From Escherichia coli (GTDB taxonomy: Bacteria > Pseudomonadota > Gammaproteobacteria > Enterobacterales > Enterobacteriaceae), in assembly GCF_044324875.1 (NCBI RefSeq), contig NZ_CP172185.1: a stretch of DNA of 64,000 bases. One strand, given 5' to 3'. Positions 4,733 to 62,207 of this stretch are shown here, one piece after another; position 1 is the stretch's first letter, and each line of letters starts with the position of its first letter. Made by a program: the position numbers and the translations under genes. The notes beneath the pieces were generated by a model that saw only the letters and a program-made list of their open reading frames with translations, was not told the origin of the DNA and did not search any database.

Positions 4733-6931
4733 TTATCTCCTGCGCAACAGCCTTAACGCATTCGCCGTCACCAGCACCGTCGCACCGGTATCTGCCAGCA
4801 CTGCCAGCCACAGTCCGGTCATCCCTAACAGCGTCGTGACGAGGAAAACGCCTTTCAGCCCCAGCGCAATAGTGATGTTCTGGCGGATATTGGCGTGAGT
4901 GGCGCGTGCCAGTTCAATCATTTGCACCAGGCCGCGCAGGTGGTTATGGGTTAATGCTGCATCGGCGGTTTCCAGCGCCACGTCTGTGCCACTGCCCATT
5001 GCAATCCCGATGGCGGCGGCTTTCATCGCTGGCGCGTCGTTAATACCGTCACCGACCATCGCCAGCGGCGCATGTTGATTCAGTTCGGTTACCGCTTTGA
5101 CTTTATCTTCCGGCAATAGGCCCGCTTTAAACTCCAGCCCCAGTTCCCCGGCAATTGCCGCCGCTGCGCGTGGATTATCGCCGGTGAGGATCACCCCTTT
5201 GACGCCCAGCGCGTTCAGTTCACTGATAGCAGTTGCAGCATCGGCGCGCAGGGTATCCTGCAACGCAATGACACCAAGCACGTCATCATTACGTACTACC
5301 AGCACTACCGTTTGCCCGGCGCTTTCCAGTTCATTAATCAAACCAGCAAATGCAACAGCGGGATGTTTCCCTGCAGCGCATATCAACACGCGCTCACCGT
5401 TAACCTGCGCTTCAATGCCAGACCCAACCAGCGCCCGCTGTGATTGGGCGGCGGGAATGGCGAGTTCAGCAACCTGTGCTTCTCGCACGATGGCTTGCGC
5501 CAGTGGATGCGTCGCGCCTTGCTCGACCGCCGCTGCCAGTGTCAGCAGTTCAGATTCACTAATACCCGTTGCCGGATGAATCGCGGTAACGCGCGGTTTA
5601 CCGACGGTCAGCGTACCGGTTTTATCAAACGCCACCTGGGTAACACGACCTAGTTGTTCCAGCGCCGCACCGCCTTTAATCAACGCCCCACGACGCGCTG
5701 CTGCTGCCAGCCCGGAGGTTATCGCCGCAGGCGTTGAGATAACTAACGCACACGGGCAACCAATCAGCAGCAGCGTCAGCCCTTTATAAATCCACTCTTG
5801 CCAGCTGGCGGCAAACAGCAGCGGCGGCACCAGCGTTACCAGCAGGGCGACGGCCATAATCGCGGGCGTGTAGATACGGCTGAAACGGTCGATAAACCGC
5901 TCAATGGGGGCGCGACGCTCTTCGGCTTCTTCGATCAGTTTCAGAATCCGGTCAATGGCGCTGGCACCCGGTTCTGACAGCACTTCCAGCGTTACCAGAC
6001 GGTCTACGCTGGTGGCTCCAGCAGGGACTTTATTGCCCGTTGCGCGCTCCACCGGAATAGATTCGCCGGTCAGGGCGCTTTCATCAAAACTGGCAAACGG
6101 TGAGAGCAGTTTACCGTCGGCAGGCAAACGTCCACCTGCGGCGACTTCAATCACATCGCCAGGGCGTAGGCTGTTAATCGCCACCTCTTCCCGCTCACCG
6201 TTACGCAGGCGCGTGGCGGTTTCTGGTTTCAGCGCCATTAACGCGCTAACGCCCTGACGCGCGCGGCTGGCGGCCCAGCCTTCCAGTCGTTCACCAATCA
6301 AAAACAGCAGCAACACCATCGCAGCTTCAGCCGTTGCGCCAATAAACAGCGCACCAATAGCGGCTACGCTCATTAACGTTTCAATGGCGAAGTAGCTGCC
6401 GGATTTGATCAGCCGTAATGCCTGACGAGCAATCGGGTACAGCCCAACCAGCGTGGTCGCGATAAACGCCAGTTGCCCGAACGGATGATTAAACTGCTCC
6501 AGACCCCAGCTGATTGCCATCATCACGATTAGCGTAATCAGCGGCAAATTCTCTTTCAGGCGTGATGTTTGCGGTTCGTCGGCGGCCTGTTCATCGCGCA
6601 GGGAATAGCCCGCTTTTTGCACCGCAGATTCAACCTGGGCACGGATGTCATTGTCGGCATCGACCACCAGTTTTTCGGTGGCGAACAACACCTGCACCTG
6701 ATTCACGCCTGCAAGCTGGCGCACGGCATTTTCTACCTTGCGCGCACAGGCGGCGCAGTCCATGCCGCTGACTTTCCAGCTATAGCGGGTGCCGGAGACG
6801 TTTTCAGAGAGAGTTGGCGTGCTGGAACATGCGCCGTCGCAGCAACAGTCGTTGGCGTTCTGTACCGTGGTTAGCGGTTTGAACGCAGCAAATTGAGGGG
6901 CTTTCTTGCCGTGATTGTCAGGAGTCGACAT
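4733..6931 (-). CDS. zntA: Zn/Cd/Pb-exporting P-type ATPase ZntA
   Basis: 732 aa; N-terminal metal-binding GMDCAAC, CPC in TM region, DKTGT phosphorylation motif, GDGINDAP. Confidence 0.95.
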   Translation of the reverse strand: MSTPDNHGKKAPQFAAFKPLTTVQNANDCCCDGACSSTPTLSENVSGTRYSWKVSGMDCAACARKVENAVRQLAGVNQVQVLFATEKLVVDADNDIRAQVESAVQKAGYSLRDEQAADEPQTSRLKENLPLITLIVMMAISWGLEQFNHPFGQLAFIATTLVGLYPIARQALRLIKSGSYFAIETLMSVAAIGALFIGATAEAAMVLLLFLIGERLEGWAASRARQGVSALMALKPETATRLRNGEREEVAINSLRPGDVIEVAAGGRLPADGKLLSPFASFDESALTGESIPVERATGNKVPAGATSVDRLVTLEVLSEPGASAIDRILKLIEEAEERRAPIERFIDRFSRIYTPAIMAVALLVTLVPPLLFAASWQEWIYKGLTLLLIGCPCALVISTPAAITSGLAAAARRGALIKGGAALEQLGRVTQVAFDKTGTLTVGKPRVTAIHPATGISESELLTLAAAVEQGATHPLAQAIVREAQVAELAIPAAQSQRALVGSGIEAQVNGERVLICAAGKHPAVAFAGLINELESAGQTVVLVVRNDDVLGVIALQDTLRADAATAISELNALGVKGVILTGDNPRAAAAIAGELGLEFKAGLLPEDKVKAVTELNQHAPLAMVGDGINDAPAMKAAAIGIAMGSGTDVALETADAALTHNHLRGLVQMIELARATHANIRQNITIALGLKGVFLVTTLLGMTGLWLAVLADTGATVLVTANALRLLRRR

Positions 6932-9138: not shown

Positions 9139-10635
9139 ATGGCGAAAGAAAAAAAACGTGGCTTTTTTTCCTGGCTGGGCTTTGGTCAAAAAGAGCAGAC
9201 CCCGGAAAAAGAGACAGAAGTTCAGAATGAACAACCGGTTGTAGAAGAAATCGTTCCGGCGCAAGAGCCTGCGAAGGCTTCTGAACAAGCCGTTGAAGAG
9301 CAGCCGCAGGCGCATACTGAGGCCGAGGCGGAAACTTTTGCTGCCGACGTTGTGGAAGTCACTGAACAGGTTGCTGAAAGTGAAAAAGCGCAGCCTGAAG
9401 CGGAAGTCGTTGCACAGCCGGAACCGGTCGTAGAAGAAACGCCGGAGCCAGTGGCTATCGAGCGTGAAGAGCTGCCGTTGCCGGAAGACGTCAACGCCGA
9501 AGAGGTTTCGCCAGAAGAGTGGCAGGCCGAAGCGGAAACCGTAGAGATTGTCGAAGCGGCGGAAGAAGAAGCGGCTAAAGAAGAAATCACCGATGAAGAG
9601 CTGGAAGCACAGGCGCTGGCTGCCGAAGCAGCAGAAGAGGCGGTGATGGTGGTTCCTCCGGCAGAAGAAGAGCAGCCGGTGGAAGAAATCGCTCAGGAGC
9701 AGGAAAAACCGACCAAAGAAGGTTTCTTCGCGCGCCTGAAACGCAGCCTGTTAAAAACCAAAGAAAATCTCGGTTCCGGATTTATCAGCCTGTTCCGCGG
9801 TAAAAAAATCGACGATGATCTGTTTGAGGAGCTGGAAGAGCAGCTGTTGATCGCCGATGTGGGCGTGGAAACCACACGTAAAATTATCACCAATCTGACG
9901 GAAGGCGCATCCCGCAAGCAGCTTCGTGATGCCGAGGCGCTCTATGGCCTGCTGAAAGAAGAGATGGGTGAGATTCTGGCGAAAGTCGATGAGCCGCTGA
10001 ATGTTGAAGGTAAAACGCCGTTTGTGATCCTGATGGTGGGCGTCAACGGTGTGGGTAAAACCACGACGATTGGTAAGCTGGCACGTCAGTTTGAGCAGCA
10101 GGGTAAATCGGTGATGCTGGCGGCGGGCGATACTTTCCGTGCAGCAGCGGTTGAGCAGCTTCAGGTCTGGGGTCAGCGCAACAATATTCCGGTGATTGCA
10201 CAGCATACCGGGGCGGATTCCGCCTCTGTTATCTTCGACGCCATTCAGGCAGCTAAAGCGCGTAATATCGACGTCCTGATTGCCGATACCGCCGGACGCC
10301 TGCAGAACAAATCGCACCTGATGGAAGAGTTGAAGAAAATCGTCCGCGTGATGAAGAAACTCGACGTTGAAGCGCCGCATGAAGTTATGCTGACTATTGA
10401 TGCCAGCACCGGGCAGAACGCGGTAAGCCAGGCCAAACTGTTCCACGAAGCCGTTGGCTTAACCGGCATCACGCTAACGAAACTGGACGGCACGGCGAAA
10501 GGCGGGGTAATTTTCTCGGTGGCTGACCAGTTTGGTATCCCTATCCGCTACATTGGTGTCGGCGAACGTATTGAGGATTTGCGTCCGTTTAAGGCGGACG
10601 ACTTTATAGAGGCACTTTTTGCCCGAGAGGATTAA
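9139..10635 (+). CDS. ftsY: signal recognition particle receptor FtsY
   Basis: Acidic E/A-rich N-domain followed by SRP GTPase domain (GVNGVGKTT, DTAGR, TKLD). Confidence 0.95.
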   Translation: MAKEKKRGFFSWLGFGQKEQTPEKETEVQNEQPVVEEIVPAQEPAKASEQAVEEQPQAHTEAEAETFAADVVEVTEQVAESEKAQPEAEVVAQPEPVVEETPEPVAIEREELPLPEDVNAEEVSPEEWQAEAETVEIVEAAEEEAAKEEITDEELEAQALAAEAAEEAVMVVPPAEEEQPVEEIAQEQEKPTKEGFFARLKRSLLKTKENLGSGFISLFRGKKIDDDLFEELEEQLLIADVGVETTRKIITNLTEGASRKQLRDAEALYGLLKEEMGEILAKVDEPLNVEGKTPFVILMVGVNGVGKTTTIGKLARQFEQQGKSVMLAAGDTFRAAAVEQLQVWGQRNNIPVIAQHTGADSASVIFDAIQAAKARNIDVLIADTAGRLQNKSHLMEELKKIVRVMKKLDVEAPHEVMLTIDASTGQNAVSQAKLFHEAVGLTGITLTKLDGTAKGGVIFSVADQFGIPIRYIGVGERIEDLRPFKADDFIEALFARED

Positions 10636-46018: not shown

Positions 46019-48484
<2,466 letters not shown>

Positions 48485-48966
48485 GTTCGCAAAGTGGTAA
48501 CTGCCGTGTGTTCTCTTAAAGCTATCGTTAATGGGCACACGGCATTTTTATATCAGATAAACGATATGTCATGACAATTTACAGACAGTATCGATATATA
48601 ATTCATATTTATTAATTTTTAATAATGATTCTCATCTGAGTATGTATCATACAATAAGCATTATAAATAACTAATAAATTATTTATTATATTTATATATT
48701 GCCCCACTCTTCAGTTATCCTGTCTAAAATAAATCTCTTTGTTTTCAAATGACTGTATTTTTATATAAAGTCAATCATTGCGAGCATGGATTCTTTTAGT
48801 TATATTACCAAGCAGCTCATATAATATTTTCAAGCCATTCTATCTCTTATTTTTTCTGTGGTTAACTACACCAGCTTTATTCATTTAAATAATTTGACTT
48901 ATTAAAGCTGAATGTAAAAATAATCGCCAATATTGCTTGGATTTTTTAACAAAAGGAAAGGTATAA

Positions 48967-49671
48967 ATGAAATTCAATCTATCTAATTTATCCGCAGTTT
49001 TACTCGCATCAGGTATGCTGATGTCAACTGTAGTAACCGCTGCGCCAGGCGATGCATCACAATTTGGTGGTGCGGATACAGACTGGAGCACCGTTGATTA
49101 TCCAAAACTCACCGATATGGATAACAACACCGATGCGATGGGCGGAAACATCCGCTTTACTGGTCGTGTGGTTAAAGCGACGTGTAAGGTTGCTACAGAA
49201 TCGAAACAGATTGAAGTGGTACTGCCAGTCGTACCTTCTAACGCTTTCACGGGCATTGATACCGAAGCAACGGGTGCCAGTAACCAGACTGACTTCAACA
49301 TTAAACTGACTGATTGTAGCAATACGGACAGTCAAAATATTGAATTTCGTTTTACTGGCGTAGCAGACGGTGCCAACCAGACGCTTGCCAATGAAGTGGA
49401 AGGAGCTGCTGATGCTGATGGTACTGGCGAAGCGGGAGCTACGGGTGTAGGGATTCGTATTTATTCTAAAAACACGACAACTGATGGCCTGATTAAGCTG
49501 AACACACAAACTCCCCAGGGGAGTAGTTCTTCCGCAGCCTACGTGATTCCTGGCGATGCTGCCACTCATGATTTTACTGCGGCATTTACCGCGGGCTATG
49601 CTCAGAACGGTAGTACCGTTGCACCAGGTCTGGTGAAATCGACGGCAAGTTTCGTCGTGCTGTACGAATAA
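48967..49671 (+). CDS. fimbrial major-subunit-like protein (chaperone-usher pilin), unusually long
   Basis: Signal peptide, Cys pair, C-terminal donor-strand-like FVVLYE; first gene of cluster with RBS AAGGAAAGG. Confidence 0.7.
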   Translation: MKFNLSNLSAVLLASGMLMSTVVTAAPGDASQFGGADTDWSTVDYPKLTDMDNNTDAMGGNIRFTGRVVKATCKVATESKQIEVVLPVVPSNAFTGIDTEATGASNQTDFNIKLTDCSNTDSQNIEFRFTGVADGANQTLANEVEGAADADGTGEAGATGVGIRIYSKNTTTDGLIKLNTQTPQGSSSSAAYVIPGDAATHDFTAAFTAGYAQNGSTVAPGLVKSTASFVVLYE

Positions 49672-49791
49672 TTACAGCAAGATAATTTCAGGTTACAGTT
49701 ACTTGTAACCTGAAATTAATATTACATGTTTATTGTAATAAATAGACACGTATCAGTAATTAAAAATTAGTTTCATCTACAAGGATGCAGT

Positions 49792-50544
49792 ATGAGATGG
49801 ATTTCAAAAAATAAATGTTTTTCGAATAGAAACATTAATTCTTTGCTGAAGACCCAATATGTCATAAGGGCCGGTGCTCTATTTTTACTATCCGCCATAT
49901 CTATCAATGCTATTGCTGCGGGTGGCTTCGGTCTTGGTTCTACGCGTCTGGTTTATCCATCTGACAGTCAGCAAATTACGCTAAGTGTACAGAATGGTGG
50001 GGCTAACACCAGCTATTTAATCCAGTCATGGATTGATGACAATCAAAGCAGTAAAAAAAGTCAGGATTTTGTGGTTACGCCTCCTTTATTTATGTTACCA
50101 ACGCGAAAAGAAGCCTCATTGAGGATAATGTTTATTGGTAAATCACAGTTACCGACTGATCGCGAAACATTATTCTGGATGAATGTGAAAGCGATTCCGC
50201 CAACGGATGAGAAGAATACCCAGAAAAACACGTTACAACTGGCGTTACAAAACAGAATTAAATTATTTTACCGTCCGACTAATTTACCCGTTCAAGCTGG
50301 TAAAGCACGGGATATGCTGCGATTTAAATACGAAGGTAAACAGCTGAGAGTCATTAACCCTTCTCCCTATTATCTGACGGTGACTGGAATCAGGGTGCAA
50401 GGGGCAAAATTACCTAATGCGTTTGTTCCACCGAAAAGTGACGTAACAGTGTCTTCACCAGTGACGTTAGCCGGTGAAATTACTTATCAAACTATCAATG
50501 ATTACGGTGCCACAACGGCCAGGCAAAAGGGAACGTTGCAATAA
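49792..50544 (+). CDS. periplasmic fimbrial chaperone (PapD-like)
   Basis: Motifs TRLVYP, FVVTPPLF, LFWMNVKAIPP, NRIKLFYRP. Confidence 0.85.
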   Translation: MRWISKNKCFSNRNINSLLKTQYVIRAGALFLLSAISINAIAAGGFGLGSTRLVYPSDSQQITLSVQNGGANTSYLIQSWIDDNQSSKKSQDFVVTPPLFMLPTRKEASLRIMFIGKSQLPTDRETLFWMNVKAIPPTDEKNTQKNTLQLALQNRIKLFYRPTNLPVQAGKARDMLRFKYEGKQLRVINPSPYYLTVTGIRVQGAKLPNAFVPPKSDVTVSSPVTLAGEITYQTINDYGATTARQKGTLQ

Positions 50545-50585
50545 ACCTGGAAGATTAGAACGTTAAAGCAACTCAGGTCAGGGAT

Positions 50586-53177
50586 ATGAACCTAAAGCTC
50601 AAAAAACTCGAACACTGGATAGCAAGGCACAAGCAGATGGGACGGAGTATACCGCTCCTGCTCACACTTTTGCCTGCGTGTTCAGTGGCGGGTATGCGCT
50701 TTAACCCTGCATTCCTGTCGGGTGATACAGAAGCTGTTGCTGATTTATCTCGTTTTGAGAAAGGGATGACATATCTACCTGGTAGTTATGAGGTTGAAAT
50801 ATGGGTCAATGATTCGCCTTTGACATCACGTAAGGTTACTTTCAAAGCTGATGAGCAGAATCAGTTGATCCCCTGTTTTTCGCTCGATGAGTTAGTTACT
50901 TTAGGAATTAACAAAAGTGCATTGCCGGAACAGGCGCAAGCAGAGGGAAATAATTGTCTCGATTTACGTATATGGTTCGCAGAAGTTCAATACACTCCTG
51001 AACTGGATGCGCAACGACTCAAACTGACCTTTCCGCAGGCAATATTAAAGCATGAAGCCCGTGGTTATATTCCACCTGAGGAATGGGATAATGGTATCCC
51101 GGCCATTCTTATTAATTATGATTTTTCTGGCAACAGTGATCGTGGAGACTATGCGTCTGATAGTTATTATTTAAATCTCCGTTCAGGTTTAAATTTAGGG
51201 GCGTGGCGTTTTCGCGATTATTCTACATGGAGTCGTTCAGGTAATTCACCGGGTAAAATTGCACATGTGAGTAGTACGTTACAACGAGTAATTATTCCTT
51301 TTAAAAGTGAATTAACACTAGGTGATACCTGGTCTTCATCGGATGTTTTCGACAGTGTGAGTATTCGTGGTGCTAAACTTGAATCCGATGAAAACATGCT
51401 ACCCGATAGCCAAAGTGGTTTTGCCCCCACTGTGCGCGGTATTGCTAAAAGCAATGCTCAGGTAACGATCAAACAAAATGGCTATGTTATTTATCAGACA
51501 TATACTCCACCGGGACCCTTTGAAATCAACGATCTGAACCCTACGTCTTCCGCTGGGGATTTGGAAGTTACGATCAAAGAGTCTGATAATTCCGAAACTA
51601 TCTATACCATTCCTTACGCCGCTGTTCCCATTCTTCAACGCGAAGGGCATATTAAATATTCGGCAACTGCCGGTAAATATCGTAGCAATAGCTATAATCA
51701 AAACAGTCCGAATGTCTTTCAAGGAGATTTGATTTGGGGGTTACCCTGGGATATTACCGCCTACGGAGGGATGCAATACTCAAATAATTATCGGGCAATA
51801 GCACTCGGGCTTGGGTTCAACCTTGGTATGTTTGGTGCGACGTCATTTGATTTAACGCAAGCCAATAGCACGCTTGCCGATGGCAGTAAACATCAAGGGC
51901 AATTGTACCGTTTCCTATATTCAAAATCGTTAGTGCAGACAGGTACGGCTTTTCAGATTATTGGTTATCGCTATTCGACGGAGGGATTTTATTCGTTGAG
52001 TGATACCACATACAAACAAATGTCGGGTACGGTTATCGATCCAGATACCCTTAATGAAAAAGACTATGTTTATAACTGGAATGATTTTTATAATTTACGT
52101 TATAACAAAAGAGGAAAGTTTCAGGCAAATATATCGCAACCATTGGGCGAATATGGCTCTATGTATTTGGCGGCAAGTCAACAAACTTACTGGAATACGA
52201 ATAATAAAGATACCTTGTATCAGGTCGGCTATAATACGAGTGTACATGGGATTTATTTAAATATTGCTTATAATTATAGTAAGTCACCAGGTTCAGATGC
52301 GGACAGAATCTTATCCGTAAATGTCTCATTGCCGATCAGCAATTGGTTATCACTAGCTGTCGATGGGCGTACTGCGACAAATTCTATGACAGCAACTTAT
52401 GGTTATAGTCAGGATAATAGCGGTCATGTAAATCAGTATGCCGGAGTATCTGGATCGCTGCTGGAACAACATAATCTCAACTATAATATTCAACAAAATT
52501 TTGCCAACCAGAATAATGGCGAAAATGGCTCGGTAGGGATAAATTACCGTGGTACATATGGTTCACTAAATTCTGGATACAGCTACGATAATAATGGTAA
52601 CCAGCAATTTAACTATGGTTTAAGTGGTGCCCTGGTTATTCACGAAAATGGTCTCACGTTAAGCCAGCCGTTAGGAGAAACAAATATACTGATAAAAGCA
52701 CCTGGGGCAAACAATGTAAATGTGGAACGCGGAACGGGGGTTAAAACAGACTGGCGTGGCTATGCTGTCGTACCTTATGCCACGGAATATCGGCGTAATA
52801 ATATCTCTTTAGACCCTATGTCTATGAGTATGCATACAGAATTAGATGCTACTACTATGGAAGTGATACCCAGCAAAGGTGCTTTAGTTCGTGCTGAGTT
52901 TAATGCACATGTCGGTATTCGAGGTTTATTTAATGTTCACTATCGTAATAAACCAGTTCCATTTGGTGCGACGGTCAGTGTACCCACTGAGGGGACAACT
53001 CAGATTACAGGAATAGTGGGTGACAGTGGGCAGGTTTATCTCTCCGGTTTGCCTTTACAAGGCATAATAAATATACAGTGGGGAGAAAGTGCTTATCAGC
53101 AATGTCGGGCAAGTTATCAATTACCGAAAAGCGAACTGGATAATGCCATTAGCTATGCAAATCTGGAGTGCCGCTAA
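50586..53177 (+). CDS. outer-membrane fimbrial usher
   Basis: 863 aa, usher-typical size and beta-rich N/Y/S/G content; located after the chaperone gene. Confidence 0.85.
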   Translation: MNLKLKKLEHWIARHKQMGRSIPLLLTLLPACSVAGMRFNPAFLSGDTEAVADLSRFEKGMTYLPGSYEVEIWVNDSPLTSRKVTFKADEQNQLIPCFSLDELVTLGINKSALPEQAQAEGNNCLDLRIWFAEVQYTPELDAQRLKLTFPQAILKHEARGYIPPEEWDNGIPAILINYDFSGNSDRGDYASDSYYLNLRSGLNLGAWRFRDYSTWSRSGNSPGKIAHVSSTLQRVIIPFKSELTLGDTWSSSDVFDSVSIRGAKLESDENMLPDSQSGFAPTVRGIAKSNAQVTIKQNGYVIYQTYTPPGPFEINDLNPTSSAGDLEVTIKESDNSETIYTIPYAAVPILQREGHIKYSATAGKYRSNSYNQNSPNVFQGDLIWGLPWDITAYGGMQYSNNYRAIALGLGFNLGMFGATSFDLTQANSTLADGSKHQGQLYRFLYSKSLVQTGTAFQIIGYRYSTEGFYSLSDTTYKQMSGTVIDPDTLNEKDYVYNWNDFYNLRYNKRGKFQANISQPLGEYGSMYLAASQQTYWNTNNKDTLYQVGYNTSVHGIYLNIAYNYSKSPGSDADRILSVNVSLPISNWLSLAVDGRTATNSMTATYGYSQDNSGHVNQYAGVSGSLLEQHNLNYNIQQNFANQNNGENGSVGINYRGTYGSLNSGYSYDNNGNQQFNYGLSGALVIHENGLTLSQPLGETNILIKAPGANNVNVERGTGVKTDWRGYAVVPYATEYRRNNISLDPMSMSMHTELDATTMEVIPSKGALVRAEFNAHVGIRGLFNVHYRNKPVPFGATVSVPTEGTTQITGIVGDSGQVYLSGLPLQGIINIQWGESAYQQCRASYQLPKSELDNAISYANLECR

Positions 53178-53740
53178 TGAATATATTACAAAAATTTATT
53201 CTATTAATGTTTAGATCATTGTTCATGATGGTGATTTCATATAACGCACTGGCTAACGATACTGTAGTGGTCACATTTACAGGACAATTATTAGCAAAAA
53301 CGTGTGATATTACAACTGGAAGTAAAGACCAGCCAGTAAACATGGGAACTTATGACGTCAATGATTTTTTGAATGTAGGGGATGTTTCTGGCAGCCATAC
53401 ATTTACGATCAATCTGGAAGGATGTCCTACAACAACCAGTACTGTTTATAGTTCAGGAGTAAGTGCTAATGTGCAGTTTACCGGGGATGCTGATGCTATA
53501 AATACCACTTTATTACGCCTTACTTCCAGCGCGGATAGTGCAACTGGAGTGGGCATCGAAATTTTAGACAGTAATGATAAAATTATAGCAATTAATAGTG
53601 AGTCAGGATTCAAAGAGTTAATTTTAAATAATAATGGCGATGCCAGTTTAACCTTTAAACTCCGCTATAAGTCAACTCAGCAAAACGTACATGCGGGACA
53701 GGCGAACGCACTATTGTACTTTGATATAGACTATCAGTGA
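53168..53740 (+). CDS. fimbrial minor subunit
   Basis: ~185 aa, Cys pair (CDIT...CPTT), C-terminal YFDIDYQ. Confidence 0.75.
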   Translation: MPLMNILQKFILLMFRSLFMMVISYNALANDTVVVTFTGQLLAKTCDITTGSKDQPVNMGTYDVNDFLNVGDVSGSHTFTINLEGCPTTTSTVYSSGVSANVQFTGDADAINTTLLRLTSSADSATGVGIEILDSNDKIIAINSESGFKELILNNNGDASLTFKLRYKSTQQNVHAGQANALLYFDIDYQ

Positions 53741-53747
53741 GGTTAAT

Positions 53748-54272
53748 ATGACACGATATTGGAATTTAATTGCCCTATTATTCTCTGTGATATCTATGTC
53801 ATCCATTGCTGATGATACAACACATACAGGTGTTGTACGTATAGAAGGAATCATAACGGCAAAGACTTGTATTGTTGCCGATGAATCTAAAAATTTCACA
53901 GTTAACATGCCTGATGTTCCCAGCTATATGGTGAGAAATTCAGGGAGTGTTACTGAAAAAATTGGTTTCTCTGTAAAGTTAACCCGTTGTGGCAGTGATG
54001 TCAGTCATGCCAATGTCACGTTTGATGGAATACCAGTTAGTGAAGACGCAGCCCTATATAAACTGGAAGAGGGCTCAGTCGATGGGTTAGCACTGGCTAT
54101 TTTTGATAACAACAGACAAAGTATTAGTAATGGTATAAAGAGTACAAGTTATGCCCTTACACCATTGGTAGATAATACATTGCATTTCTCTGCTGCTTAT
54201 AAAGCTATAAAAAATGATGTACAACCAGGAGATGCGAATGCATCAGTTTCCTTTATCGTCACTTATGATTAA
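53748..54272 (+). CDS. fimbrial minor subunit
   Basis: 174 aa, signal peptide, Cys pair, C-terminal SFIVTYD. Confidence 0.75.
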   Translation: MTRYWNLIALLFSVISMSSIADDTTHTGVVRIEGIITAKTCIVADESKNFTVNMPDVPSYMVRNSGSVTEKIGFSVKLTRCGSDVSHANVTFDGIPVSEDAALYKLEEGSVDGLALAIFDNNRQSISNGIKSTSYALTPLVDNTLHFSAAYKAIKNDVQPGDANASVSFIVTYD

Positions 54273-55014
54273 CGTGCTGATATGCATTTTAATATGTTGC
54301 ACAAATGCGCAGGCAGGAGTTGTTGTTGGCGGTACTCGTTTTGTTTACCCAGAAAAGCAGTCATCAATTTCGGTCGAGCTTAAAAATACTGCCAGTAAAG
54401 ATATGCTGGTTAAAATTTCCGTGACACCTGATGATGGACGTCAGTTAAAAGGGACACTGGAATCCCAGCCTTTACTTCCAGATAAGGCGTTTATTGCCAC
54501 ACCACCATTATTGGTACTTAAACAAGATAAAAATACCAAAATAAGAATCAATCGCGTGGGGGGGCAGTTACCTATAGATCGTGAGAGTTTATTTATACTG
54601 AATATTGCAGCGTTACCTGCTCAGGAACAAAACTCACAGCTTAAGAATGAAAATCAACTCCAGGTGGCTGTACGTAATAGGATGAAAATATTTTACCGCC
54701 CAGAGACGTTATCAGGTAATCCACTTGACGCTTATCAACAGTTACGCTGGTCGCGAAAGAATGAAGCTGTCACCGTTTTTAACCCTACGCCCTGGTATGT
54801 GACACTCTATAATTTATCTATTGATGGTAAAAGCATAAATGGTGGCATGGTTGCACCGTTTAGTCATCGCCAACAGGATTGGTGTCAGCGGCAAGGATAT
54901 TGTGAGATTAACTGGCAAACACTAGATCTTTACAATAATGCCTTACCCGTATGGAGCGTAAAATTAAATGTTTTACAAAATAATGTGATGAGTGCAGTAG
55001 CGATACATGGATAA
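54238..55014 (+). CDS. second periplasmic fimbrial chaperone
   Basis: Motifs TRFVYP, FIATPPLL, LFILNIAALPA, NRMKIFYRP; start uncertain (ORF opens at 54214). Confidence 0.8.
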   Translation: MHQFPLSSLMINVLICILICCTNAQAGVVVGGTRFVYPEKQSSISVELKNTASKDMLVKISVTPDDGRQLKGTLESQPLLPDKAFIATPPLLVLKQDKNTKIRINRVGGQLPIDRESLFILNIAALPAQEQNSQLKNENQLQVAVRNRMKIFYRPETLSGNPLDAYQQLRWSRKNEAVTVFNPTPWYVTLYNLSIDGKSINGGMVAPFSHRQQDWCQRQGYCEINWQTLDLYNNALPVWSVKLNVLQNNVMSAVAIHG

Positions 55015-56158
55015 CTGGAGAAGCATGATGCTTACTTATTTTTGGGGAAATATAAAAGCAATTTGTATATTGTTTGTTCTTTTAGTCAGTAGCTGCTATA
55101 ACATAGTATATGCTGAAGATATGGGACGGGATCGCGCCTTTTGTTATCCTGGTGCACCAGGTAATAATACTACTCCTGCGACATTTTCTTATAATTTTGG
55201 TACGGTAATTGTCTCAGATGTTAATAATAATTCGCCTGGGACAGTATTACCCTCGCAGGACTGGAAAATAGGGCATTATAAGGCTTATTGTAATTCTCTG
55301 GATGATTATGAGGTTTATTTTTCTGGTGTTTCTGGGATTGATCCGTCAGGAGCGTCTGGTGATCATCAGGGGAGCGATATATTTATTCCTTTGACTCATG
55401 AAATATCTGTCTCGACACATGTAAAGCTCTATAATAAAAATGGCACAATGACAGATAAGGCAGTACCTTTTGACAACTATAGCACCAATTATCCAGCAGA
55501 CAGAAGTAAACCATCAAGTTGGGCCTCAGGAACAGAAGGTTATATAAAAATCAGACTTGATAAAAAAATAATATCCGATATATCAATAAATAACGTATTG
55601 CTGGTTTCTTTGTATGTCAGCCAGTTTCCAACAGAGCACGGACCAATTCCAGTATTTAATGCTTATATTGGCAACTTAAATATTGAAGTTCCACAAGGTT
55701 GCACAATTAATGAGGGAACTAGTTTTACCGTTAATATGCCGGATGTCTGGGCCAGCGAATTAAGTCGGGCTGGTGCTGGAGTGAAGCCCACGGGCGTTTC
55801 TCCAGTGGCAACCACTATTCCGATAAACTGTACGAACAAAGATATTGATGCCGTAATGACGCTGGTTTTTGATGGCAATATTTCATCAACGAGAGATGTT
55901 AATGGTCGGCAAAGCATTATTCAGGCGGAGGATAACCCCGACGTTGGTATTATGATTATGGATAGCCAACAGGAATCCGTAGACTTGAACGCTCTTGCTG
56001 CGCATGTTGGTGTGCCATTTAAGTTAGTTGAAAACCGGGCTGAGTCAGCTCAGACGGCAGATGTGACTTTTCTGTCTCTCCCTGTAAGTACCACAGGGCG
56101 ACGCCCTGCTGCGGGTCGTTATAATGCCCTGGCTGTTTTGCGGGTGGAATACCAGTGA
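55007..56158 (+). CDS. putative fimbrial tip adhesin (two-domain pilin-like protein)
   Basis: 383 aa, signal peptide, C-terminal pilin-like domain ending VLRVEYQ; last gene of cluster. Confidence 0.65.
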   Translation: MDNWRSMMLTYFWGNIKAICILFVLLVSSCYNIVYAEDMGRDRAFCYPGAPGNNTTPATFSYNFGTVIVSDVNNNSPGTVLPSQDWKIGHYKAYCNSLDDYEVYFSGVSGIDPSGASGDHQGSDIFIPLTHEISVSTHVKLYNKNGTMTDKAVPFDNYSTNYPADRSKPSSWASGTEGYIKIRLDKKIISDISINNVLLVSLYVSQFPTEHGPIPVFNAYIGNLNIEVPQGCTINEGTSFTVNMPDVWASELSRAGAGVKPTGVSPVATTIPINCTNKDIDAVMTLVFDGNISSTRDVNGRQSIIQAEDNPDVGIMIMDSQQESVDLNALAAHVGVPFKLVENRAESAQTADVTFLSLPVSTTGRRPAAGRYNALAVLRVEYQ

Positions 56159-56571
56159 TGTGTGAGTCAGTGCAGAATCGGATTAGCCCGTTTTTAGCCA
56201 TCGGTAGGGTAAAGTTTGATGGAAAATATGGGTTATGTGCCGATGTATCCCACAATGAAATAACCCTCGAGGGAAAGGAATCAGCGCGATGAACAAATTC
56301 ACGGTGTTTTGCTGCTAGGTGTGGTATTTCTCGGCTTTATTATTGTACCGTTCTTGATATGGCCGACGGTGGTTGCGCTGGCTGCTTGTATTATTACGCT
56401 GAGTTTTCTGGGGAGATACTGTTCTCTATCCCGCTCATGATCAGGCGTATTTCACTTCTGGAATTACAACTTTGGTTATCGGTTGTATATGCGCTTTGTC
56501 CATGCCGGATGCGACGTGAACGTCTTATTGGTCTACAAAATCATGCAAATTCAATATATTGCATAAACCAC

Positions 56572-57565
<994 letters not shown>

Positions 57566-57643
57566 TCACGGATTGGCATCGAAGTCCGATCAGCGATTCG
57601 CATCCATTCGATCAACCGGGAACTTAACTTTTTCTACCGCTTT

Positions 57644-58399
57644 TTAACGCGTTTTTTCGCTGCTTTCCACTACCGGGGGATTTTTCCTCAGTGACTCTCC
57701 CTGAAGGACCACTCGGTGTGAGTTATGTACCAGTCTGTCCAGGATGGCATCTGCTGTTGTTGGGTTCTCCATCAGACCATGCCATTTATCTACCGGGAAC
57801 TGGCTTACCACTATCGTGCTGCTTTGTCCGTAACGATCCTCTATGAGCTCCAGAAGGTCATTACACTGGGCGTTACTTAACTGTTCCAGCCCCAGATCGT
57901 CCAGGATTAGAACCTGTATTTTTTGCAACTGTTTCAGATATTTCAGCCAGCTGCCATCAACACGTCCCTGAGCCAGTTGTTCCAGTAATCGCCCGGTTCT
58001 ACAGTACCGGACGCTGTGTTTCTGTCGACATGCCTGTTCGCCCAGCGCATTGGCTATCCAGCTCTTGCCACATCCTGTCGGACCGGTTATCAGCAGGTTT
58101 TTCCTGTGGGTTATGTAGTGGCCGTTCAGCAGTTCTCTCATCTGTTCAGCCCGCAGACCTCTTGAGGCCGGATAGCGCAGCCCTTCCGGTGTTGCCTGGT
58201 ATTTCAGGCCGGCATTTTTTCTCAACCGTGCCACACGGCTGTTTTCCCTGCTCAGAAGCTCGTCATCAACCAGCAGCGTCAGCCTTTCCTCGAACGACAG
58301 TTCGTCGTAGGTCTGAGGCGTTTCCCGCTGCCGTATCAGGCTCCCGGCCATCGCCGGGAGTTTCAGTTGGGTCAGTTTGTTTAACAGGTTATCACTCAT
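57644..58399 (-). CDS. istB: IS21-family helper ATPase IstB
   Basis: Start at MSDNLLNKL; Walker A GPTGCGKS, Walker B VLILDDLG. Confidence 0.85.
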   Translation of the reverse strand: MSDNLLNKLTQLKLPAMAGSLIRQRETPQTYDELSFEERLTLLVDDELLSRENSRVARLRKNAGLKYQATPEGLRYPASRGLRAEQMRELLNGHYITHRKNLLITGPTGCGKSWIANALGEQACRQKHSVRYCRTGRLLEQLAQGRVDGSWLKYLKQLQKIQVLILDDLGLEQLSNAQCNDLLELIEDRYGQSSTIVVSQFPVDKWHGLMENPTTADAILDRLVHNSHRVVLQGESLRKNPPVVESSEKTR

Positions 58400-58415
58400 A
58401 CTGTTGTTCCTTCTG

Positions 58416-59951
58416 TCAGTGGTAGTAGCCCGGACCACGCAGGTTTTCATGCTCTGAAGCATATGCCGGATGTTGTTCGCCCTGGCGGGATAATGGAAGC
58501 TCCAGGTTCTCCCGATGGTGACGCAGCAGATTGTCGATAAAGCGTCTGTCAGGGGCGTTATAGTGCAGGGCAACGTAACAGGCCTTTTCCAGCCGTTCCG
58601 GGCCGTATTTTTTCTGAAGTGCCAGCAGCCCCAGAACTGCACGATAAGCCAGTTCCGGATGGGGTTTTGCCTTCAGCATGGATTCAACCACCCGGCCTGT
58701 GGACGGGCCCGTACGTTTTCCCTGCTCGATCAGGCGTTCCGGTGTCCATGTCCCGTGCTGCCGGTGGCGCTCTGGCATGTGAAGCGGATTGGTTGTGTGT
58801 TTATATTCATGTGTGCTGCGCGGATGTTGCGCCACACACTGCCCCTTGTGCCAGAGCTGTACCACCGACTGCCCCGCCTTCAGTGACAGACGCTGACCGA
58901 CCAGTTCGTGTGGAACGGAGTACCAGTGACGGGCATATTCAACGTGGTAGTCAGGGCCAACCTTCACAGCTTTGTATTCCGTGTATTCATAAGGTGCCAG
59001 AGGCAGCGGAGAGAGTGCTGGCGCATCCAGTATGCGGAAGCGTTCTGCACGGGTTTGATTGCCGTACCCCTTCATTGGCCGGTTATTCATGTCTGTCAGT
59101 AACTCCCTAAGGCGCGCATTCAGCGCCCTGAGCGTGTGGAAGGTTTCATTACGGATGCGGGCAAGAAGCCATCGTTCAACGATGAGGACGCCGTTTTCTG
59201 CTTTTGGTTTATCTTTAGGTTTGCGTGGTCGGGCCGGGATGATAACCGTGCCATAGTGCTCAGCCAGTGCCTGATAACTGTCGTTGATGACAGGCTCATA
59301 TCGATCGGCCTTTTTCACTGCGCTTCTGAGGTTATCGGGGATGAGCAGCTTCGGTACGCCGCCCAGGAAGGTCAGGCAACGGCTGTGGGCATTTAACCAT
59401 GACATCATGTCCTGACCTTCGCACGCTTCAACGTAGGTATAGTTGGACGCCCCCATTACGGCCACGAAGATTGCCACGCGGCGTATCTCACCGGTGTCCG
59501 GATTAATAACAGGAACCGTAGGACCACAGAAGTCGATAAAAAGCTTTTCGCCGGCACGATGCTCCTGGCGCATGGAGAGACGTCGCGTTTTTTTCCACTC
59601 CCGGTAGCAACGGCAGAAGTGCGAGTATCCCATCGCTTTGTTACCCGCCTGTGCCTTGTATTCCATCCACAACAGTTGCCGCGTCACACCTGGTTTTCTC
59701 ATTTCCGTATCGAAGTACAACATGTCAGGCATTACAAGCTCTGATGCAAAGGTGTCTTTGGGCGGAAAAATGAGTTTCTCCAGCGTGTCATGGGATATAT
59801 CAGCAGGTAATGGCCATGACAGAGAAGAGGCTTTGAAGCGGGCAAGAACCTCAAAAACGGTTGAGGCGCTGATGTGTAACGTCAGTCCGATACAACGGTT
59901 AGTCAGCTTCTTGTCGAACTTGAGCTGAAGGATCTTAAAACAGGTTTCCAT
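58416..59951 (-). CDS. istA: IS21-family transposase IstA
   Basis: N-terminal HTH then DDE integrase core; start uncertain (ORF opens at 60062). Confidence 0.8.
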   Translation of the reverse strand: METCFKILQLKFDKKLTNRCIGLTLHISASTVFEVLARFKASSLSWPLPADISHDTLEKLIFPPKDTFASELVMPDMLYFDTEMRKPGVTRQLLWMEYKAQAGNKAMGYSHFCRCYREWKKTRRLSMRQEHRAGEKLFIDFCGPTVPVINPDTGEIRRVAIFVAVMGASNYTYVEACEGQDMMSWLNAHSRCLTFLGGVPKLLIPDNLRSAVKKADRYEPVINDSYQALAEHYGTVIIPARPRKPKDKPKAENGVLIVERWLLARIRNETFHTLRALNARLRELLTDMNNRPMKGYGNQTRAERFRILDAPALSPLPLAPYEYTEYKAVKVGPDYHVEYARHWYSVPHELVGQRLSLKAGQSVVQLWHKGQCVAQHPRSTHEYKHTTNPLHMPERHRQHGTWTPERLIEQGKRTGPSTGRVVESMLKAKPHPELAYRAVLGLLALQKKYGPERLEKACYVALHYNAPDRRFIDNLLRHHRENLELPLSRQGEQHPAYASEHENLRGPGYYH

Positions 59952-60169
59952 AGTGCTCCTGGATTTTCTCTTTCTGGACATTGACGTCTCCACTGGTTTA
60001 AACACGGCAATGGAGACTGTGGTGAAAAGAGTTAATTCCCGGAGTGACTGGCAGGATGCCAATCAATGATCGGAAGCATGCCAAATCGTGATCGATTGTG
60101 ATGCCAAACTGTGATCGGAGATGGATGCCAAATCATGATCGATTCGAATGCCAAACTGCGATCGATTCA

Positions 60170-60522
<353 letters not shown>

Positions 60523-60590: not shown

Positions 60591-62096
60591 TCACGAAGCC
60601 AGCGATAACCTCTGCTGCGTATACTCCACTAGCCACTGACTCACACGAGATTGTTGATCCGCATTCAGCCACATGCCTTGTTTTGTGCGACGCCACAGGG
60701 CATCGTCGGCGCGACGGACCCATTCGTGATCCACCAGGTATTTCAGTTCCGCTTCGTAGAACTCATGACCGAAATCCTCCCCGAGGTCGCTTATCGCTCC
60801 CGCATTGCAGAGCAGCAGCTCGCTGTTGCTGCCGTAAGTGCGCGCGTAGTGACGTGCCAGCGATTCGGTCAGGAATGGGTAACGACGGCGCAGACGAGCT
60901 GCGTAATCGTCGCGGTCGCCTTCAATGGCACCACCCGGCAGCACGCTCTCTTTCGTCCATGCCGGGCCAATGCCCTGATAATACGGCGTCAGTTTTTCCA
61001 GCGCATGTTCCGCCAGTTTGCGGTAGGTGGTCAACTTACCGCCGAATACCGACAGCAGCGGCGCTTTGCCGTTTTCATCATGGATATCAAGGGTGTAATC
61101 ACGAGTGATAGCCTGCGGCGAATCGGACTCATCATCACACAGCGGACGCACGCCGGAGTAGGTCCAGACGATATCGTCCCGGCTTAACTGCTTTTTAAAG
61201 TGCGTGTTATACACTTTCAGCAGGTAATTGATTTCACTCTCTTCAATTTTTACTGCTTTTGGATCACCTTTGTATTCCACATCGGTGGTGCCGATGATGG
61301 AAAACTCGTCCATCCACGGGATCACGAAGACAATACGTTTATCTTCGTTTTGCAGAATGTAGGCCTGCTTTTGTGTATGCACACGCGGCACCACAATATG
61401 GCTGCCTTTGATCAGGCGAATGCCATAAGGTGAGGGTAGATGCATCCCGTCGTCGAAGAACTGCTTCACCCACGGGCCGGTGGCGTTCACGAGGCCGCGC
61501 GCTTGCCAGCTATATTTTTTGCCGGTATCGATATCTTCCGCTTCCACAATCCACAGGCCGTTTTCGCGGCGAGCAGAAGTGGCACGAGTACGGGTAAGCA
61601 CTTCACCGCCTTTACGCACCACCATCTGGGCGTTGGCGAGTACCAGACGGGCGTCGTCTACCCAACAGTCGGAATATTCGAATCCGCGCTTAATTTCCGG
61701 TTTTAACACTGAATTTGCGCCAAAACGCAAACCGGTTGATCCCGGTAGGCTGGTGCGTTTACCCAGATGATCGTACATAAACAGACCAATCCGAATCATC
61801 CACGCCGGGCGCAGATGCGGACGATGCGGCAGGCGAAAACGCATCGGGAAGGCGATATGCGGGGCCATTTTCAGTAGCACTTCACGTTCAGCCAGCGCCT
61901 CGCTGACCAGGCGGAATTCATAGTGCTCAAGGTAGCGCAGGCCACCGTGAATGAGTTTTGAACTGGCGGAAGAGGTCGCGCAAGCGAGATCCTGCGCCTC
62001 CAGCATCAGCACGGATAAACCGCGTCCAGCGGCGTCTGCCGCGATACCAGCACCATTGATGCCGCCACCTATCACAATCAGATCTTTGGTTTCCAT
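60591..62096 (-). CDS. glpD: aerobic glycerol-3-phosphate dehydrogenase GlpD
   Basis: Start at METKDLIVIGGGINGAGIA (FAD motif); ORF opens at 62111. Confidence 0.95.
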   Translation of the reverse strand: METKDLIVIGGGINGAGIAADAAGRGLSVLMLEAQDLACATSSASSKLIHGGLRYLEHYEFRLVSEALAEREVLLKMAPHIAFPMRFRLPHRPHLRPAWMIRIGLFMYDHLGKRTSLPGSTGLRFGANSVLKPEIKRGFEYSDCWVDDARLVLANAQMVVRKGGEVLTRTRATSARRENGLWIVEAEDIDTGKKYSWQARGLVNATGPWVKQFFDDGMHLPSPYGIRLIKGSHIVVPRVHTQKQAYILQNEDKRIVFVIPWMDEFSIIGTTDVEYKGDPKAVKIEESEINYLLKVYNTHFKKQLSRDDIVWTYSGVRPLCDDESDSPQAITRDYTLDIHDENGKAPLLSVFGGKLTTYRKLAEHALEKLTPYYQGIGPAWTKESVLPGGAIEGDRDDYAARLRRRYPFLTESLARHYARTYGSNSELLLCNAGAISDLGEDFGHEFYEAELKYLVDHEWVRRADDALWRRTKQGMWLNADQQSRVSQWLVEYTQQRLSLAS

Positions 62097-62207
62097 GCTG
62101 CCCTCATTCACTTTCGTTAAAGCTCATAAATGTTCGTTATCGAACATATTAGCAAAGAATCGCGCTTTAGGTAACATTGAAAAAACATTTTAGAGTGATA
62201 TGTATAA

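Follow-up and report, generated by a model that had tools for sequence, protein, structure and literature searches.

A lineage-specific acidic tail before the donor strand of AufA, the major subunit of Escherichia coli Auf fimbriae

The auf Locus

The window, by which we mean the whole 64,000-nucleotide stretch of Escherichia coli chromosome that was analyzed, contains an open reading frame on the plus strand (48967–49671) that was confirmed, from the ORF list and by reading the sequence, to encode a protein of 234 aa. This is aufA, the gene for the already described major subunit of the Auf chaperone–usher fimbriae, and it is gene 1 of the seven-gene fimbrial operon aufABCDEFG. A preliminary description of this DNA had taken it for a first fimbrial gene of 234 aa, and both the ORF and the Pfam assignments of the seven ORFs bear this out. 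The genes, and one element between them, are as follows:

48967–49671, plus strand: aufA coding sequence, 234 aa plus stop (ORF, Pfam PF00419, match to CFT073 AufA)
49683–49718, plus strand: perfect 16-bp hairpin between aufA and aufB (RNA folding)
49792–50544, plus strand: aufB, PapD-like periplasmic chaperone (Pfam PapD_N and PapD_C; annotation of the same-allele genome H1)
50586–53177, plus strand: aufC, outer-membrane usher (Pfam Usher, PapC_N and PapC_C)
53168–56158, plus strand, one joint span: aufD and aufE (minor pilins), aufF (second chaperone) and aufG (Pfam Fimbrial/PapD; gene order as in CFT073 and C. freundii)

By Pfam, the order of the seven ORFs is pilin, chaperone, usher, pilin, pilin, chaperone and adhesin-like pilin (the 383-aa product of aufG), which matches the annotation of CFT073. 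In that uropathogenic strain, the operon aufABCDEFG corresponds to c4207–c4214, with AufA, the major subunit of the Auf fimbriae, as c4214 (Buckles et al. 2004, as cited in PMC5956150); Luterbach et al. also worked on this operon (PMC5956150). The AufA proteins of the window and of CFT073 are 84% identical over 234 of 234 residues, with equal length and a gapless alignment, and database entries in AufA's 90% cluster bear the name 'Auf fimbriae major subunit AufA'.

The genes upstream of auf in the 64-kb window are glgA and glgP, and the downstream neighbor is glpD (glgP 46037–48484, auf 48967–56158, glpD 60591–62111), a glgP–auf–glpD placement that is common to CFT073 and strain BEC1-S17-ESBL-09. 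CFT073 thus agrees with the window in its chromosomal locus, its seven-gene order, the AufA length, and the tail and donor strand described below. On the other hand, three hypothetical genes that lie 3' of aufG in CFT073 are absent from the window strain, where nested IS elements are found instead. The G+C content of the operon is 38–44%, compared with 51–55% in the flanks, as expected for an acquired island.

When a 1301-bp query (aufA and its flanks) was compared by megablast with 5426 complete E. coli genomes, 784 were matched, 228 of them at at least 95% identity (the allele type of the window) and 556 at 60–80%; CFT073 is among the matches listed in the latter band. The window therefore carries a non-CFT073 allele type, with ~77% nucleotide identity to the CFT073 allele, and this type is present also in Escherichia marmotae and in unclassified Escherichia isolates. 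The CFT073 allele is divergent: dS has reached saturation along most of aufA, and the differences are concentrated in aa 143–158 and 177–205.

The hairpin between aufA and aufB has a folding energy of −19.9 kcal/mol (z = −5.6), and none of 200 shuffled sequences was equally stable. In the AT-rich stretch of 482 bp upstream of aufA, scanning for promoters gave a site count not above that of shuffled sequence.

Start Codon and Signal Peptide

Two features bear on where translation of aufA begins and on how the product is exported:

48955–48961, plus strand: ribosome-binding site GGAAAGG, 5 nt 5' of the aufA ATG (read from the sequence)
48967–49041, plus strand: Sec signal peptide, aa 1–25 MKFNLSNLSAVLLASGMLMSTVVTA, with predicted cleavage between VTA and AP (rule-based)

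Could the unusual length of AufA be an annotation artifact, the real start being a downstream Met, so that the extension would be untranslated or part of a longer leader? The preliminary description had raised a mis-called start, and some database entries for AufA do begin at M17 or M19 (218 and 216 aa, respectively). However, both of these starts keep the entire tail and truncate the signal peptide instead, and the shorter versions are probably truncated starts. No signal peptide follows the internal M51 or M58, a strong ribosome-binding site stands at the annotated ATG, and reading of the sequence found no further in-frame start 5' of it. By rule-based inspection, the predicted signal peptide has a basic n-region with K2, a hydrophobic core at aa 7–24, residues in keeping with the −3/−1 rule and a Pro at +2.

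Nor do the orthologues start at a downstream Met: those of CFT073, Citrobacter and L003 share both the start and the length of aufA. The Citrobacter freundii orthologue (233 aa, 77% identity) belongs to a seven-gene operon that is identical but lies elsewhere on the chromosome, and a contig from a sequencing run carries the orthologue of a third lineage, with 234 aa and 71% identity. The start and length are therefore kept across four lineages and, as shown below, the codons of the tail are under purifying selection. With the ribosome-binding site, the signal peptide, the conserved start and this selection all against it, we rejected a mis-called start, which we regard as hardly conceivable. 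The 234-aa annotation of AufA is correct.

The Pilin Core

To collect relatives of AufA, we ran the whole protein in HMMER against the full set of 1.84 billion representatives; 105 relatives recovered in this way were aligned, giving 106 sequences together with AufA. Three features define the core of the protein:

49141–49179, plus strand: donor strand (classical Nte), aa 59–71 GGNIRFTGRVVKA, motif GGNIRFTGRVV
49183–49317, plus strand: span of the disulfide cysteines C73–C117, the sole two columns without variation among the 106 aligned sequences
49627–49668, plus strand: C-terminal F-strand region, aa 221–234 GLVKSTASFVVLYE, with a penultimate Tyr

The Pfam Fimbrial domain (PF00419) was matched over aa 62–233 with 77.7 bits, compared with a cut-off of 25.6. 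In the donor strand, AufA and FimA agree at G60, F64, G66, V68 and V69, two of these residues (G60 and G66) reach at least 90% conservation among the 106 pilins, and dN between E. coli and Citrobacter is ~0. At the other end, G221 and Y233 are likewise at least 90% conserved in the 106 pilins, the Gly standing ~13 residues before the penultimate Tyr, and aa 221–234 are 90–97% identical across the Auf lineages. None of the sequence features that define a classical chaperone–usher major pilin is missing from AufA.

The predicted structure points in the same direction. An AlphaFold2 (AF2) monomer model of mature AufA, built with the 106-sequence alignment, had a mean pLDDT of 84.4, with core blocks mostly at 84–96. 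In a Foldseek comparison with the PDB, the best match was FimA from the rod of type 1 pili (8psv_A, E = 3.9e-10), and the FimA matches reached target-normalized TM-scores of up to 0.88 over ~166 columns. After FimA came FimI, FimG, FimF and PapA, with a probability of 1.00 for FimA, FimI, FimG and PapA. The model thus predicts a FimA-like incomplete Ig fold for the core.

FimA (8psv, 5oh0, 6c53) has in common with AufA the Pfam family, the motif GG-x-[IV]-x-F-x-G-x-VV, the disulfide and the C-terminal Tyr, although the two proteins are only ~25–30% identical. They differ clearly in front of the donor strand, where mature FimA has ~6–8 residues before the donor-strand Gly and AufA has 34.

By its usher, the closest E. 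coli type is that of ElfA/YcbQ (the Elf/Ycb fimbriae of E. coli K-12), AufC being 49% identical to ElfC. The Auf and Ycb types are closely related and mutually exclusive according to Wurpel et al. (PMC3559732). Nevertheless, the gene order of the Elf operon differs from that of auf, and ElfA, with 179 aa and 31% identity to AufA, is without the tail: AufA 50–60 pairs with ADDNAITDG at the mature N-terminus of ElfA, which leaves ~25 AufA residues unmatched.

Location of the Extra Length

The segments in which AufA departs from its relatives, or varies between alleles, are the following:

49042–49131, plus strand: AufA-specific acidic tail, aa 26–55 APGDASQFGGADTDWSTVDYPKLTDMDNNT, net charge about −5
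49393–49440, plus strand: acidic Gly/Ala/Asp loop, aa 143–158 EVEGAADADGTGEAGA, preceding the conserved ATGVGI strand
49495–49581, plus strand: most variable region, aa 177–205, inside the A158–G221 segment

The AufA precursor has 234 aa, whereas the median of 102 relatives is 182 aa, and this difference of ~52 aa agrees with an early estimate that the pilin is 50–60 residues longer than typical. The longest precursor among the 102 relatives has 226 aa and is itself a mis-called start; this protein (P0028), considered as a second pilin with a long N-terminus, was rejected because an ordinary signal peptide begins at its residue 51.

To locate the extra length, we took as landmarks the positions of the 106-sequence alignment that show no variation or at least 90% conservation, and measured the segments between them. 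The donor-strand Gly is residue 60 in AufA and residue 29 in the median of the 102 relatives, which amounts to ~31 extra residues, and the AufA family has the longest genuine pre-donor segment among the 105 aligned relatives, the one greater value being that of the mis-called P0028. The N-terminal extension of ~60 residues in the preliminary description is actually a 25-residue signal peptide followed by a tail of ~30 residues. Its view of the protein as a chaperone–usher major pilin with extra acidic sequence past the signal peptide was right, and we located that segment at aa 28–61.

The remaining length lies in three places. The C73–F110 segment is 4 residues longer than the median of the relatives; the F129–A158 segment, which holds the acidic stretch, has 29 residues compared with a median of 21 (+8), with 3 of 76 relatives equally long; and the A158–G221 segment has 63 residues compared with a median of 51 (+12). 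The tail and these three loop expansions account for the difference between 234 aa and the median of 182. Three loops of AufA are somewhat longer than usual, and the tail is the largest part of the extra length. The expansions of +12 (aa 158–221) and +4 (aa 73–110) had no place in the preliminary description.

What had been reported there was an acidic Gly/Ala/Asp-rich insertion. Such a stretch does exist (aa 143–162), but it is only ~8 residues over the median and forms part of a normal loop; aa 143–158 are modeled confidently inside the fold (pLDDT ~88–91, AF2). Between the window and CFT073 alleles, identity is 69% in aa 143–158 and 62% in aa 177–205, compared with 84% overall. Across the lineages, aa 177–205 have 52–69% amino acid identity and a dN of 0.25–0.49. 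The internal acidic loop and aa 177–205 are probably ordinary surface loops bearing allelic variation. The suggestion of a surface-exposed variable loop is plausible for the internal acidic loop (69% vs. 84%), which is a normal loop that has been lengthened slightly.

Conservation and Distribution of the Tail

In the HMMER scan, relatives outside the AufA cluster all begin aligning at AufA ~51–60, just past their own signal peptide. The same start (~51–60) was seen for 17 of 17 sub-threshold NCBIfam models, and the best PDB sequence matches, FimI and FimA, start at query residues 54–57. The whole-protein scan of the 1.84 billion representatives revealed no relative of the tail outside the AufA lineage. 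Similarly, the tail had no match in the NCBIfam models or, when searched alone, in the PDB. When a 40-aa query from the tail was compared with 5.8 billion proteins, nothing outside AufA and its fragments came back, in a search of low sensitivity that yielded only 4 word-index candidates.

Within the AufA lineage, the tail is conserved in C. freundii and in the third lineage. Six pairwise comparisons among the four lineages gave a tail dN of 0.075–0.305 and a dS of 0.59–3.35, with a dN/dS of 0.06–0.28. Synonymous sites are near or past saturation across these lineages, and yet the length of the tail and much of its sequence are kept. The AufA tail is under purifying selection. The positions F33-G34, W40, Y45-P46, T49-D50, D52 and N54 are invariant across the lineages, and the tail is 87% identical between the window and CFT073 alleles, which is above the loops at aa 143–158 and 177–205.

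We rejected the possibility that the tail arose when the donor strand, or another part of aufA, was duplicated within the gene, since the gene holds short chance DNA repeats only; the AufA protein likewise showed no self-similarity (BLASTP E = 0.26 over 5 residues).

Non-homologous pre-donor tails of 20–27 residues were observed on three other major pilins (P0074, P0096/P0157 and P0088), and in these tails Gly, Ser, Thr and/or acidic residues are abundant. In the case of P0074 and P0096/P0157, the pilin is gene 1 of an unrelated chaperone–usher operon on metagenomic or sequencing-run contigs. Pilin tails are thus rare but recurrent, and that of AufA is the longest among the aligned relatives. 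A search of the accessible literature, which excluded the original 2004 description of Auf, found no discussion of the AufA tail. The gene and the system are already known, and the tail is apparently an unremarked, minor feature of them.

Predicted State of the Tail

In the AF2 monomer, mature residues 1–30, which make up the tail, had a pLDDT of 51–54, and residues 31–40 had a pLDDT of 65. To imitate donor-strand exchange, a head-to-tail tandem trimer was also modeled, in which the donor segments formed beta-strands. This model was poor (mean pLDDT 58.5, pTM 0.37), and the lack of secondary structure in three of its three tails (pLDDT 27–39) is weak evidence for that reason. The notion that the extension is part of the canonical fold is at odds with the AF2 monomer, which puts the tail outside it (pLDDT ~51–54). 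The models suggest that the tail lies outside the canonical pilin fold and is probably flexible. The low pLDDT of the tail may, however, merely reflect the very shallow alignment over this region, to which four lineages contribute.

Could the tail be a pro-region, as the preliminary description had suggested, that is removed before or after polymerization? With the signal peptide on one side and the donor strand on the other, it has the site expected for a pro-peptide, and a periplasmic or surface protease that cleaved it off would leave a mature AufA starting near the donor strand. On the other hand, Pfam detects no protease gene in the operon, and the pilins with 20–27-residue tails in unrelated operons are likewise without one. 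Classical chaperone–usher pilins are not known to be processed past the removal of their signal peptide. We consider such a pro-region improbable. For a mature protein that retains the tail and begins with APGDAS, the computed mass is 21,498 Da.

A conserved binding site for metal is another conceivable role. The segment T-D-[MI]-D-[ND]-N-x-[DS] might bind Ca2+ and become ordered only with the metal, thereby linking subunits or tuning stiffness. D50, D52 and N54 have the 1-3-5 spacing of EF-hand/DxDxDG-type loops and are conserved in the four lineages. However, loop position 6 is T, V or D and not Gly, position 12 is N61 (K in CFT073) in place of the canonical Glu/Asp, the only domain that Pfam finds in AufA is the Fimbrial domain, and no PDB sequence matches the tail. 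An EF-hand/DxDxDG calcium loop as a class was rejected, given its incomplete ligand pattern and the lack of a Ca-binding Pfam domain, and a metal-binding tail appears very improbable.

Proposed Placement on the Fiber

How would a tail in this position be displayed? According to the established mechanism of donor-strand exchange, AufB would cap AufA in the periplasm and aid its folding. At the AufC usher, the donor strand of an incoming AufA would then enter the groove of the previously assembled subunit. As the tail is directly N-terminal of the donor strand, it should emerge between the subunits, on the exterior of the fiber. This placement assumes a FimA-like helical rod form for Auf. In type 1 pili, the N-terminus of FimA is disordered, variable and exterior (PMC5798934), and in P pili the staple of PapA points away from the complemented groove, toward other subunits and the outside of the rod (PMC4715182, PMC5719983). 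By analogy, the AufA tail should be exposed on the exterior of the Auf fiber.

One flexible tail per subunit, with a net charge of about −5, would form a coat over the fiber. Such a coat would likely affect the surface charge, hydration and steric behavior of the fiber, for example by counteracting aggregation or by shielding the shaft and neighboring adhesins. Furthermore, the invariant residues F33-G34, W40, Y45-P46, T49-D50, D52 and N54 may provide staple-like contacts with adjacent subunits. We therefore favor, with a probability of roughly 60%, the joint explanation that AufA is the major Auf subunit and retains a flexible, acidic, exterior tail, for which staple-like contacts are possible.

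Could the tail instead act as a clamp or as a staple of greater length? It might, above all in its conserved proximal half (W40...Y45-P46...TDMDNN), become ordered upon assembly and pack on neighboring subunits, acting as a longer PapA-like staple that stabilizes or reshapes the quaternary structure and mechanics of the pilus; this possibility overlaps with the explanation that we favor. The PapA staple (residues 1–5), which is a precedent for residues directly N-terminal of the donor strand, touches four other subunits (−1, −2, −4 and −5) (PMC4715182). The AufA tail shows no variation across the four lineages at its aromatic, Pro and Asp positions, and between E. coli alleles the tail is better conserved than the surface loops. 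From the sequence, the invariant aromatics and this degree of conservation would fit specific binding or packing better than a featureless brush.

Several observations are less favorable to an ordered staple. The tail had no confident structure in AF2, either alone or in the tandem trimer, and its acidic, Gly/Thr/Asn-rich composition is typical of disorder. The PapA staple consists of five ordered residues and the AufA tail of ~30 acidic ones that are predicted to be disordered, so that the two share their position directly N-terminal of the donor strand and no sequence relationship. Moreover, a PapA T3R mutant kept native-like pili, and its authors concluded that the staple is perhaps not absolutely essential for the rod (PMC4715182). 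Taken together, a tail that becomes ordered as a staple seems rather unlikely to us, and we continue with the flexible exterior tail as the preferred explanation.

Significance for Auf Fimbriae

Buckles et al. 2004 reportedly observed amorphous, AufA-reactive material on the cell surface and no haemagglutination or adherence phenotype. Uropathogenic E. coli have Auf fimbriae more often than faecal E. coli do, and in murine UTI the fimbriae are made in vivo, although an auf deletion mutant had no fitness defect in this infection (PMC5956150). TosR is the sole regulator so far tied to the operon; when it is overproduced, Auf expression reduces adherence to bladder cells, and Auf expression also disturbs the RDAR (rough, Congo-red-binding) colony morphotype (PMC5956150). 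It has been speculated that Auf fimbriae sterically inhibit other adhesins (PMC5956150). This speculation was made without the tail in mind, and an acidic tail would fit it.

A lineage-specific acidic tail on every shaft subunit might explain both the lowered adherence and the interference with the RDAR morphotype. It is possible, though on present evidence doubtful, that the tail is a functional module, either as an ordered, extended staple that alters fiber architecture or mechanics or as a dense acidic brush. In the case of a brush, there would be one tail per ~8 Å of fiber, given a rise like that of type 1 pili, and Auf would be an anti-adhesive or shielding fiber. This could explain why a receptor or adherence phenotype has so far escaped detection as well as the interference with other adhesins.

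The AufA tail, a small feature that can be tested, belongs to a known system and does not make a new kind of system. Nevertheless, it would extend the idea derived from the PapA staple that residues before the donor strand tune the properties of the pilus. If the tail is a functional module, then the tails of P0074, P0096 and P0088 would mark a recurrent, unrecognized class of 'tailed' chaperone–usher pilins.

Allelic Structure of aufA

We compared the aufA allele of the window (48967–49671) with that of CFT073 (9205–9909 of its locus, L002). At the 5′ end of the gene, which encodes the signal peptide and the acidic tail, dS was 0.4–0.6, whereas across the whole gene it was 1.4 overall, with two segments saturated and their dS not computable. 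Because synonymous divergence is far lower at the 5′ end than across the remaining gene, the sequence comparison suggests that the aufA alleles are mosaic or recombinant in structure. In two public entries, the AufA of the window's allele begins further downstream: at M19 in P0159 (216 aa) and at M17 in P0163 (218 aa). Both starts shorten the signal peptide, and the two entries are probably inconsistent database start calls.

Sequences Flanking aufA and the Operon

Two noncoding features adjoin aufA:

48485–48966, intergenic region 5′ of aufA, 482 bp, very AT-rich
49683–49718, perfect 16-bp hairpin, starting 12 nt past the aufA stop codon

The block that covers the upstream region (48000–48999) has a G+C content of 38%, and shuffled sequence held sigma-70-like sites at least as often as 48485–48966 did. 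TosR-dependent induction is likely controlled from this upstream region. The hairpin (−19.9 kcal/mol, z = −5.6) is not followed by a T-run. In other fimbrial operons, such hairpins have been reported as intercistronic stabilisers or attenuators that favour the major-subunit mRNA, and this one probably serves as an intercistronic mRNA stabiliser or attenuator favouring the major-subunit transcript.

At the other end of the operon, the aufG–glpD interval holds nested insertion sequences (~56500–60500). An IS621 copy (IS110 family), whose 283-aa transposase ORF lacks the start of the DEDD domain, adjoins, or is split by, an ISSso4-like element of the IS21 family:

57644–58642, minus strand, istB
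58416–60062, minus strand, istA

The reference genome H1 (100% identity to the window across 48500–49800) lacks these insertion sequences and has an aufG–glpD gap of ~0.5 kb, and at least 80% of the stretch was matched in only 2 of the 5426 complete E. coli genomes. In the CFT073 assembly examined (L002 15240–18632), three hypothetical genes that are missing in both the window and strain BEC1-S17-ESBL-09 separate aufG from glpD; aufG itself carries an internal stop there and is labelled a pseudogene in the annotation.

Tailed Pilins and Operon Mobility

Tails are not confined to AufA. Non-homologous tails of 20–27 residues run from the signal peptide to the donor strand in other major pilins, namely those encoded at 6001–6663 of contig L007 and 200–859 of contig L009, where the pilin gene in each case heads an unrelated chaperone-usher operon, and the protein P0088. 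The "tailed pilin" may thus be a recurrent variant. Furthermore, a complete auf-like operon was found in Citrobacter freundii CP057863.1:

L004 10001–17105, seven-gene auf-like operon

Its AufA is also tailed (77% identity). Unlike in E. coli, this operon adjoins the cob genes, and its different chromosomal site indicates that the entire auf operon is horizontally mobile.
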